Assembly (NCBI GenBank): GCA_046759165.1
Contig: JBHIBS010000011.1
Span: 1-49,042 of the forward strand
Source of the DNA: a bacterium
GTDB taxonomy: Bacteria > UBA6262 > WVXT01
DNA length: 49,042 nt
Direction: 5' to 3'
This document shows positions 1 through 31,870 of the stretch, one piece after another. The notes beneath the pieces are model-generated. The model was not told where the DNA came from and did no database searches. It worked only from the letters and a program-made list of their open reading frames with translations. Position numbers and translations under genes: made by a program. Each line of letters begins with the position of its first letter. Position 1 is the stretch's first letter.

Positions 1-316
1 AAAATCTCCCGGCATTATATATTGCCTTATCTACAGATTCCTGGTATGACATAAACGGCATATCCCCAATAATAAAGGTATTGGGAGCTCCTCTACGAAC
101 AGCTTCTGCATGAACAATCATCTGCTCCATTGTTACTGGTCTGGTATCTTTATATCCATAAACAACCATACCCAACGAATCGCCAACCAAAAGCATATCT
201 AAACCTGCTTTTTCAGCAAAAGTAGCAGTGGGATAATCATCACATGTGAGAAATGTAATCTTTTCTCCATCTTTTTTCATCTTATAAAAATCGAGTACAC
301 TCTTTTTCTTACCCAT
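1..316 (-). CDS. panB: 3-methyl-2-oxobutanoate hydroxymethyltransferase (ketopantoate hydroxymethyltransferase), 5' part, runs off the window edge
   Basis: Not in the ORF track. My translation is [54 protein letters not shown]...[11 protein letters not shown], with the PanB motifs LLVGDSLG and [20 protein letters not shown] lies upstream. Confidence 0.9.
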
Positions 317-547
317 TCTACTGTCCCTCTCTTTAAGTTATGTAACTACAAGGTCACATACTGCATGTTCAGACGCTTTAATGTGAACATTTCATAATTT
401 TCCTCATTCATATATGGCTTGTTTCCTGGAAGTCTACACAACCAAACTGCTTCGTTAATGCCCTAAATTAAAAAGCGGGAAAAACCAATCCATTTTGAAT
501 AACTCCTGCTTTAGATATTCTATTAACGGTCGGATTGGGTATTACAT

Positions 548-710
548 TAGGATATGCCTATAATAAGTTAATTATAAACTTCCTTGTAGGAGCAACTGAT
601 ATGCCTAATCCTCCTTATAAGGTACAATTGTCTTACTACCTCTAATACGTTACGATGAAATTCAGGAAGCTTGTCCAGAAAGAGCACCCTGCCTCAAGGA
701 TATCTGCCTA
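548..710. promoter_or_regulatory. Repeated operator-like motif GATAT(CT)GCCTA upstream of panB
   Basis: TAGGATATGCCTA at 548-560 (TAGG/CCTA palindromic arms), GATATGCCTA at 598-607 and GGATATCTGCCTA at 698-710, all in the long non-coding leader. Confidence 0.3.
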
Positions 711-823
711 GGAAACATTCACGCTTAATAGCTGTAAAAAGGCTGTTGATGGGTGATATTTTGGGAAGTTGTGTGATGGTCAAGCTAGACGACAAACTGA
801 GTTTTCGAAGATACTTAGATAAT

Positions 824-863
824 ATTATGAGTCAGGTGCTCTAACCAGCTGAACTATGGGCCT
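824..863 (-). tRNA. 5' half only of a tRNA with CAT anticodon (Ile2-like), truncated just after the anticodon loop; likely an att-site remnant
   Basis: The minus strand reads AGGCCCA-TA-GTTC-AGCTGGTTA-GAGC-A-CCTGA-CTCATAA-T, then TATTATC... The expected TCAGG, T-arm and CCA are absent, and I see no 3' half in the window. A -10-like TATACT lies upstream at 878-883. Confidence 0.85.
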
Positions 864-898
864 ATTTTTGCTTTTTAAGTATAAACACAATTATTATA

Positions 899-1153
899 TT
901 AAATGAAAATTTTTGGTTTTTTAAGTTCTATGGCAATCAGTGTTTCTGTTGCAGTAGTGCCTGGAATTGCCCTTATCTTATTAATCACAACTGAGGCAAG
1001 TTCATCTATGTCCTCTGCCTGCACGGTAACTACCAGGTCCCACCGGCCGAAAACAGCAATAACTTCCTGGACTCCACTAATCTGCCTTAATGCCTCCATA
1101 ATAACTTCTTCATGTCCGGATAATAGACGGACAAAAACCAGCCCAGAGACCAT
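899..1153 (-). CDS. Stand-alone Lrp/AsnC ligand-binding (RAM) domain protein
   Basis: MVSGLVFVRLL...GVQEVIAVFGRWDLVVTV...KIRAIPGTTATETLI fits the RAM fold. ATG 1153 has an AAGGAGG RBS; the longer 1249 start runs through an intergenic repeat. Confidence 0.8.
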   Translation of the reverse strand: MVSGLVFVRLLSGHEEVIMEALRQISGVQEVIAVFGRWDLVVTVQAEDIDELASVVINKIRAIPGTTATETLIAIELKKPKIFI

Positions 1154-1172
1154 TCTGTTTCCTCCTTCTATC

Positions 1173-1268
1173 AACCCTCCCTTTGGGGAGGACTCCAGAG
1201 CCGATTTCATCCGGGATGGAGAGCTTCGCTCTGCTACTACATTCTGCACAATTTGAAATTGTGCCTAC
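1173..1268 (-). repeat. Composite intergenic REP-like cluster (GTAG hairpins plus a CCTCCC-NAAA-GGGAGG hairpin)
   Basis: Minus strand: GTAGGCACAATTTCAAATTGTGC (1246-1268), GTAGTAGCAGAGCGAAGCTCT (1220-1240) and CTGGAGTCCTCCCCAAAGGGAGGGTT (1173-1198). The same modules recur at 13777-13859. Confidence 0.8.
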
Positions 1269-11063: not shown

Positions 11064-11291
11064 GTGATTGCGGACCACTGAAAAGGACCGTGTAATCGAC
11101 CCGAAGTGTCGTTGCAATGGCGAAACCCGTGGCAAACCGACGAAGTCGTTGCGAGCCCTGAAGGGGTGTGGCAATCTCTACAATAAAATGGGATTCCTTC
11201 GCTTTCGCTCGGAATGACACTGCGTGTCAGATTGCTTCACTTCGTTCGCAATGACAATTCGTATCAAGTCGCTTCTAGTCCTAGCAATGAC
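11064..11291. repeat. About 230-bp composite palindromic repeat (GTC(A/G)TTGCGA...GCAATC type REP units), copy 1
   Basis: Three forward units followed by about three inverted units. A highly similar inverted copy lies at 24813-25051. Confidence 0.85.
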
Positions 11292-13706: not shown

Positions 13707-13776
13707 CTTCGGACTGACTCCCTATCACCTTTCTCCTGATGGTAACCCCACTGTTCCAGAGCCCATACGTTGATGT

Positions 13777-13878
13777 AGAGTTTCGCTCTGCCACTACATC
13801 CTGCACAATTTGAAATTGTGCCTACTACAAACGAACCCTTCCTCTCGGGAGAACTCCAGCTTGAATCGAACCCCTATA
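13777..13878 (-). repeat. Composite REP-like cluster, sister of 1173-1268
   Basis: GTAGTGGCAGAGCGAAACTCT (13777-13797), GTAGGCACAATTTCAAATTGTGC (13803-13825), tetraloop hairpin (13834-13859) and half of a GGGGTTCGATTC unit. Confidence 0.8.
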
Positions 13879-13887
13879 TTGAAGAAA

Positions 13888-24705: not shown

Positions 24706-24782
24706 TCTATTTTGGTCAAGCTTTCACTTGACACTCCCGTGCGCCGGATTTGATCAAGAGAGTATTGGTAAAGCGAGCATTA

Positions 24783-25135
24783 GAATTTTTAGCCAAAAAT
24801 CGAAGTAAAGATCTCATTCCCAGGAAGCGAAGCAACTTGATACGAATTGTCATTGCGAACGAAGTGAAGCAATCTGACATGCAGTGTCATTCCGACCCTG
24901 AGTGAAACGAAGGGGAAGGAATCCCATTTTATTATAGAGATTGCCACGCCCCTTTGGGGCTCGCAACGACTTCGTCGGTTTGCCACGGGCTTCGCCCTCG
25001 CAACGACCCTTCGGGTCGATTACACGCTCCTTTTGAGTCGCTGGTAATGACGGGCGGTGGTCAAAGACCAAAAAATTGTCAGCGAGCGAACCAAATCCCG
25101 AGCATATCTTCCTTAGCGATGAACAAATTATCTTT
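24783..25135. repeat. Nested repeat: outer element (arms shared with 31659-31817) enclosing an inverted copy of the 11064-11291 REP cluster
   Basis: Left arm GAATTTT(T)AGCCAAAAATCGAAG(T/A)AAAGA; right arm GGCGGTG.TC.AAGACCAAAAATTGTCAGCGAGC.AACCAAAT.CCGAGCATATCTTCCT.AGCGATGAA; inner cluster at 24813-25051. Confidence 0.82.
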
Positions 25136-25167
25136 CAATTCCTTCGATGGTTGGGCTATTACGCGTT

Positions 25168-31559: not shown

Positions 31560-31658
31560 ATTGACCCTCCTTTATTTAGTATAGCACTAACCTCCGGACG
31601 ATCGGAGCAACTGCCAAGGTTCAAATACAGTTAAAAGATAGTTTGTGAAGAGCTTTTG

Positions 31659-31817
31659 GAATTTTAGCCAAAAATCGAAGAAAAGAGTTTAGCCGAAACT
31701 TCCAGTGTGGAATTTCCGGAAATTCCTGAGATTTTTGGCGGTGCTCGAAGACCAAAAATTGTCAGCGAGCCAACCAAATTCCGAGCATATCTTCCTCAGC
31801 GATGAATAAACATCTTT
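31659..31817. repeat. Second copy of the outer repeat element with a short different core
   Basis: Same arms as 24783-25135; the core contains the perfect palindrome GGAATTTCCGGAAATTCC. Confidence 0.78.
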
Positions 31818-31870
31818 AACTCATAAGTCTAAACTCCTCCGCTACGCCGATTGGAACCAAATTAATCTAC

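Follow-up and report, generated by a model that had tools for sequence, protein, structure and literature searches.

The closest described systems are genetic elements that integrate into tRNA genes, and the available text of PMC8371274 states that their tyrosine integrases use the 7-bp anticodon loop as the overlap region. Elements that act on the 5′ part of the gene form a minority. In the accessible part of the Islander paper (Hudson, Lau and Williams 2015, PMC4383910), 159 of 3919 islands have a displaced 5′ tDNA fragment, and the part of PMC6563490 at hand, which cites Zhao and Williams 2002, calls an event in which recombination exchanges the 5′ portion of a tRNA gene "considerably less frequent". 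Archaeal pTN3-like integrases, as far as the text of PMC8371274 is available, use the 5′ half, and the rebuilt tRNA is expressed from the integrase promoter, an arrangement "seldomly encountered in bacteria". For the tRNA-dependent lysogeny of mycobacteriophages, the accessible portion of Guerrero-Bustamante and Hatfull 2024 (PMC10865867) describes a core of about 10 bp and a phage that brings in a full tRNA of its own, without a tRNA gene being rebuilt.

The locus analyzed here is a further case of the described minority island class, with a 5′ fragment and reversed orientation, in a decayed and probably immobile form. It resembles the 5′ class, as characterized in the available text of PMC4383910, in its intact tRNA gene, the tyrosine integrase gene, the anticodon-centred site and, if C11 and C58 join, the same-strand 5′ fragment upstream and a size within 2-200 kb; it is unlike that class in that its integrase is a dead remnant and the island lies over two contigs, which would join as described below. 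The case of Zhao and Williams 2002, as relayed in the part of PMC6563490 at hand, likewise involved replacement of the 5′ part of a tRNA, in another host and with another tRNA. In contrast to the pTN3-like integrase genes, which the available account describes as split by integration, the integrase here lies whole upstream of the tRNA. As in tRNA-dependent lysogeny, again as covered by the accessible text, the host tRNA is split and the host would depend on element DNA for an essential tRNA, but here a 40-bp repeat appears to rebuild the gene with the host 3′ half and native downstream DNA. An earlier note on this DNA had held that retention of the 5′ half at the promoter-proximal junction is the rarer layout, and the figure in the accessible Islander text agrees with it.

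The stretch of DNA that was analyzed (the window) is contig C11, 49,042 nucleotides long, of genome G000, an assembly of 1.89 Mb in 165 contigs with an estimated contamination of 3.5%. On the minus strand, positions 863..824 correspond to nucleotides 1-40 of a tRNA(CAT) gene and are identical at 38 of 40 positions to an intact copy at G000:C58:4864-4938 (38/39 by BLAST, E 5e-14; analytic chance expectation about 1e-15). The two differences are G1>A (position 863) and C11>T (position 853). Identity stops after nucleotide 40, which lies one base beyond the anticodon loop of 7 nt; at each of the four positions that follow, the two sequences differ. The loop of the C58 tRNA comprises nucleotides 33-39, and the identity block therefore ends at the loop. 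In the window the loop occupies 825..831 (minus strand), and by the rule for tyrosine integrases in PMC8371274 this would be the crossover region; identity with the far junction ends at 824. The 40-nt front half of a tRNA(CAT) gene followed by an abrupt switch, as the earlier note had described it, was thus found again in this comparison, and its statement that the window holds no tRNA 3′ half also held. ARAGORN detected no tRNA in the window, and the 35-nt 3′ half is absent from it, the best ungapped match being 20/35. A search of Rfam over positions 250-1000 returned no intron or other RNA family, and only three chance snoRNA hits (E 2.7-8.1).

Upstream of the orphan half (824..863, minus strand), which would mark the left attachment junction (attL) in the host tRNA-Ile2(CAT) gene, are the native tRNA leader and a −10 box (864..898, minus strand; TATAAT at 898-893), followed by a gene for an Lrp/AsnC ligand-binding-domain protein (899..1249, minus strand; PF01037). 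This gene is syntenic with the tRNA in relatives and represents the host flank on the promoter side. The half gene had been described as kept behind its promoter, which is correct for the −10 hexamer and the native leader but not for the −35 box. The spacer between Lrp and the tRNA is 35 nt in the window compared to 129-141 nt in five of five relatives compared; the TTGACG −35 box kept in those five is deleted here, with about 100 bp missing, and no site like the TTGACG-17-TATAAT promoter of relative G005 was found in the window. The proposal that U11 reflects drift of a non-functional copy gained support and extends to A1: the sequences support both G1>A and C11>T as decay of a copy that no longer functions.

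Contigs assembled from sequencing runs were used to examine whether the junction at 824 is genuine. Contigs of runs X1 (176-1235) and X3 (176-893) cross it with zero differences, while those of runs X4 and X5, both filed under other studies, cover 691-862 across the junction with 14 differences, which indicates that a related strain has the same junction. Because X3 is from the same study as X1, which is possibly the source sample of the assembly, and because the X4 and X5 contigs look alike, the four bridging runs do not amount to four independent witnesses. Misassembly at about 824 had been named beforehand as a way in which the reading could fail, and contigs from four runs crossing the junction speak against it. 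An exact 20-mer of the junction gave 0 matches in metagenome contigs. An excised or empty form, in which an intact 3′ half would follow the Lrp side, is missing among the contigs listed from public runs, but this does not count as evidence of its absence, because rare variants are lost from assembled contigs. Two X3 contigs do continue past 824 into the 3′ half, which agrees with the number of loose ends behind 862.

The genome contains three CAT tRNA genes according to ARAGORN, on C53, C71 and C58. The C53 gene has initiator features, C71 holds the other CAT gene, the 5′ end of the C58 gene is closest to tRNA-Ile(GAT), and TilS is encoded in the genome. By elimination among the three, the C58 gene is most likely tRNA-Ile2. 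It is also the second copy that a genome-wide ARAGORN search, suggested by the earlier note, was meant to reveal. The gene is located directly behind a tyrosine-integrase remnant and ahead of an ADH gene. Its leader is foreign, yet its downstream DNA and the ADH-ALDH genes are native, with 78-80% identity to G005. This comparison of leader and downstream DNA places the promoter-side half of the host gene in the window and the 3′ half of the host gene on C58, where another 5′ half makes it complete. The foreign leader of the intact gene, combined with the sharing of nucleotides 1-40 with the orphan, also bears out the idea that the element carried the tRNA 5′ half. Both junctions can be read directly in the two contigs.

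The same locus was compared in eight genomes of the family, and the Lrp locus with its downstream DNA is visible in six of them; in G004 the contig ends there, and G006 has no match to the Lrp locus. An empty site next to the Lrp gene, which had been predicted, is seen directly in two relatives. G005 has Lrp, the TTGACG-17-TATAAT promoter (11/12), the intact tRNA, Fe-ADH and ALDH, and G007 has the same order up to ADH with a small GIY-YIG insert. In G002, G003 and G008 Lrp and the tRNA are present but ADH is lacking. G001 has a degenerate 3′-type tRNA fragment (L021, G001:C1:27172-27223) after Lrp and ahead of ADH-ALDH, and its intact tRNA follows at a distance of 3.3 kb. ADH-ALDH is found at the Lrp site in some relatives and not in others, and it may itself be a cassette. 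The island DNA was absent from the Lrp-tRNA region in all six relatives compared, which substantiates the proposal that the DNA left of 824, including panB, is part of an inserted island.

Taken together, these data make it very probable that the orphan half is the left scar of a tyrosine-integrase island of about 6 kb that entered the anticodon loop of tRNA-Ile2(CAT) and rebuilt the full gene at its far end. In the proposed mechanism, a tyrosine-integrase element would insert by recombination at the anticodon loop of the only tRNA-Ile2(CAT) gene, which lies between the Lrp/AsnC gene and ADH-ALDH. Its attachment site (attP) would carry the tRNA gene's 5′ half rather than the usual 3′ half. Integration would thus strand the host 5′ half behind the host promoter, joined to an element arm (attL, in the window), while at the other end the 5′ half of the element and the 3′ half of the host would form a complete tRNA (attR, on C58). 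We infer that the crossover lay in the anticodon loop and was made by the integrase now decayed on C58. Inverted symmetry between the left arm and the sequence to the right of the loop in the window is slight, so that the junction seen today may be where a later deletion ended and not the original crossover.

As for the far junction, the earlier note had expected an intact tRNA under a promoter of the element. The intact tRNA is there, next to an integrase gene, and the geometry suggests that it would be transcribed from DNA inside the island, but the consensus scan for the promoter did not rise above chance. Three consensus sites were found on C58 versus 1.9 ± 1.4 expected by chance, and the nearest upstream one is 234 nt off. 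Scans of C58, of G008:C17 and of C14 gave no site at a shared position.

The island (1..823 in the window) has a GC content of 0.37, compared to 0.43 in the flank, and it probably continues across a 487-nt gap into C58:1-4863. The evidence for the join comes from a second copy of panB. The window opens at codon 105 of this gene (2..316, minus strand, the first 105 codons; PF02548), C58 opens with its last 15 codons, and the missing part is 487 nt. A complete panB copy with a 92% identical protein is located on C76. No more than two 5′ ends and two 3′ ends of panB occur in the assembly, and the one complete copy is that on C76. In addition, the single panB of G002 has a 5′ flank of the window type together with a 3′ flank of the C58 type, and one X1 contig reaches 499 nt beyond the first base of the window. 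As panB is split between the window and C58, the two junctions most likely bound one island that was divided by an assembly gap. C11 and C58 would then be contiguous, with about 6.2 kb between the repeats; no contig spans the whole.

The cargo of the island indicates a longer history. Next to panB is a non-coding repeated arm (317..627, minus strand) with BLAST hits on C2, C7, C29, C61 and C68 and in G005, G006 and G008; on this strand it follows a 60-nt scrap of comM (628..687, minus strand; codons 302-321) that is 85% identical to the intact ComM of the genome. A comM copy in G008 (L027:6373-7335; cf. L080:1063-1122) matches only up to codon 321 and then continues with foreign genes. The probable source of the scrap is thus an unrelated element that targets comM, with ends scattered through the family; the scrap would be the attachment piece of that element. 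The island further contains a LysM protein, a 358-aa ORF without a Pfam match, a nitroreductase, the tyrosine-integrase remnant, and three tRNA-Thr-like 5′-half scars, the third of which is more decayed. The three scars and the comM scrap indicate that the history of the island comprises more events than one integration. The mobile panB variant (window 2-316; L030:9214-10065; L071:6673-7524) is found at different loci in G000, G001 and G002, and its N-terminal motif has Asp or Glu (TCDD/TCED) where the C76 copy has Tyr (TCYD).

An integrase at the other island end had been anticipated, and the remnant beside the C58 tRNA is of this kind. It is a PF00589 match at C58:4463-4843 (47.7 bits, cut-off 27.1) on the strand of the intact tRNA, and its end lies 20 nt ahead of that gene. 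It covers Pfam positions 27-121 of 172, and the N-terminal domains and the C-terminal motifs are gone; the 233 nt that hold these motifs in the frameshifted relative L081 are missing. One column has Lys where three relatives have Arg. We take the lost residues and motifs to be the catalytic ones. Among 80 metagenome loci with this integrase, six are 83-90% identical to the remnant. Fourteen of the 80 were examined, including all six close ones. Four of the six are followed by a whole tRNA(CAT), one is cut after 7 nt of the tRNA and one is on a contig that ends earlier; the cargo upstream follows three patterns. All six are truncated or frameshifted, and no intact integrase for the tRNA(CAT) site was found among them.

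With decay directly visible in the half gene, its promoter and the integrase, the sequences suggest that excision would now yield a tRNA gene that has U11 and an A1-C72 mismatch and lacks the −35 box. The window's long frames from stop to stop contain 1021 Ile codons, 337 of which are AUA, so loss of a good tRNA-Ile2 should be harmful. The island is therefore probably immobile by now and effectively locked in.

One alternative, also raised by the earlier note, is an active tRNA-splitting switch in which the element would have to be excised before a full tRNA-Ile2 can be produced. The position of the junction in the anticodon loop, the single-copy status of the tRNA, the presence of TilS and the frequent use of AUA would all suit a switch. 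What decides against it is that the complete tRNA is already present on C58 in the integrated state. The loss of most catalytic residues from the integrase, the presence of the full tRNA and the decay of the orphan half together argue that there is no excision switch, since an excised gene would carry A1 and U11 and have no −35 box, and we consider it extremely unlikely. Still harder to credit is that the half gene is a simple decayed pseudogene, an intron-split tRNA or a misassembly. The fragmentation of the assembly and its estimated contamination might be taken to favour such explanations, but contigs from four runs bridge the junction, positions 250-1000 contain no intron family and the window no 3′ exon, and the missing 3′ half was found on C58 in the expected synteny. 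We regard the chance of any of these as practically negligible.

Two other possibilities concern the way in which the present arrangement arose. The two junctions might not belong to one island, so that a rearrangement between island sites left Lrp and ADH-ALDH far apart and the panB of the window joins another 3′ end. In favour of this, the proposed join crosses a gap inside a gene that is present as two 92-93% identical copies, the middle parts of the two seem to be fused in Logan contigs, and C58 carries scars from another tRNA target. The count of panB ends, the complete copy on C76 and the pairing of flanks in G002 nevertheless favour the join, and the gene order to either side agrees with the empty site seen in G005 and G007; even after a rearrangement the 5′ half would remain an integration scar. 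This explanation is improbable. The half gene could also stem from a short duplication of the tRNA 5′ end, by a GIY-YIG mini-cassette or otherwise, to which unrelated cargo was added later, given that four of the six relatives have an 84-aa GIY-YIG ORF at the Lrp-tRNA locus. However, the duplications in G002, G007 and G008 end at nucleotide 27 and repeat the native leader ahead of the intact copy, whereas here the repeat extends to nucleotide 40 and the leader of the intact copy is foreign, no GIY-YIG ORF was seen in the island, and the integrase remnant abuts the intact tRNA. We judge this origin to be very unlikely, and an integrase-borne island at the anticodon loop remains our preferred reading.

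The GIY-YIG units are an observation in their own right. An ORF of 80-84 amino acids lies between a partial tRNA 5′ copy and the intact tRNA(CAT) in four of the six relatives (L022, L025 and L026, which are G002:C44, G007:C64 and G008:C25, and L021, G001:C1), with PF01541 tested for G007. In G002, G007 and G008 the native leader is repeated ahead of the intact gene, and G002 has at least two units in tandem. A literature search for GIY-YIG tRNA cassettes returned unrelated papers only.

The 5′-type layout is found at other tRNA genes as well. G008:C17 provides an intact case, which consists of a perfect 38-nt 5′ half of tRNA-Thr(TGT), an insert of about 15.5 kb, a 424-aa integrase and a rebuilt tRNA; the C58 remnant is 41% identical to this integrase over 94 residues. 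In G008 the integrase frame (L061:16443-17717) runs through the rebuilt tRNA-Thr(TGT), which is the head of a Thr-Tyr-Gly-Thr-tuf cluster. It follows that the C-terminus of this integrase would change on excision, and that the cluster must be transcribed from island DNA. In G003 and G008, 39-40-nt 5′ halves of tRNA-Ala(GGC) lie beside integrase matches, and in G009 and G010 integrases point into intact tRNA-Ser and tRNA-Val genes. For the Cys tRNA, G000 itself has an intact gene at one place and a 39-nt 5′ half with two differences at another, and its tRNA-Thr(CGT) is preceded by an integrase stub. With Ile2, Cys and Thr-CGT in G000 and Thr-TGT, Ala-GGC, Val and Ser in relatives, the 5′ layout may be the main mode in this family. 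In the dead islands at G000:C14:28643-28840 and L070:4517-4802, the part of the integrase gene retained just upstream of the rebuilt tRNA is the same, a central one, and this stub is possibly kept because it holds the promoter.

In terms of geometry, 20 of the best 80 genome loci of the integrase group point into a same-strand tRNA or tmRNA gene and 25 face a convergent tRNA, which is the usual 3′ type; in the rest, the tRNA lies upstream in 7 loci, 4 loci break off early and 24 lack a tRNA. Of the 20 same-strand loci, one shows a 5′ fragment and two show 3′ fragments downstream, most of these loci being too short upstream. A quick tree was made from 57 rows labelled by geometry only, leaving out rows without a nearby tRNA or with fewer than 180 residues. 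The same-strand geometry is clustered on it, with 7 changes compared to a shuffled mean of 18.2 (0 of 500 shuffles as low). A single origin of the 5′-type geometry was rejected, as the tree needs 7 changes and at least three are forced by well-supported branches.

A tentative idea, possible but in our estimation somewhat short of an even chance, is that a one-way ratchet fixes 5′-type islands and that it acts together with a family-wide preference for this normally rare layout. In such a ratchet, the stranded 5′ half and its promoter would decay until excision would destroy the only AUA-decoding tRNA, and the island end would be kept after the integrase dies. The island interior could then become a permanent landing pad that swaps cargo. 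If the lock-in is true, it explains the persistence of dead islands, and an essential tRNA would have been handed to foreign transcription signals. The locus is a well-resolved example, with both junctions, relatives with the empty site, a sister element that is still intact, and the same integrase in six decayed versions. Programs that look for islands by way of 3′ fragments and intact integrases would overlook most of those in this lineage.

Several other partial tRNA copies in G000 were considered as islands and rejected. The Glu (C27) and Gly (C85) copies are short tandem duplications around a repeat, and the tRNA hits on C142 and C53 are contig ends. The 5′ duplications of tRNA-Glu (G000:C27:20128-20318 / C54) and tRNA-Gly (G000:C85:4-250) flank a repeat that contains CGACGAATAAGGAG. 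Short intergenic repeat families with many copies genome-wide are also present in the window, at 11077-11290, 24758-25145, 31624-31831, 1215-1272 and 13772-13882.
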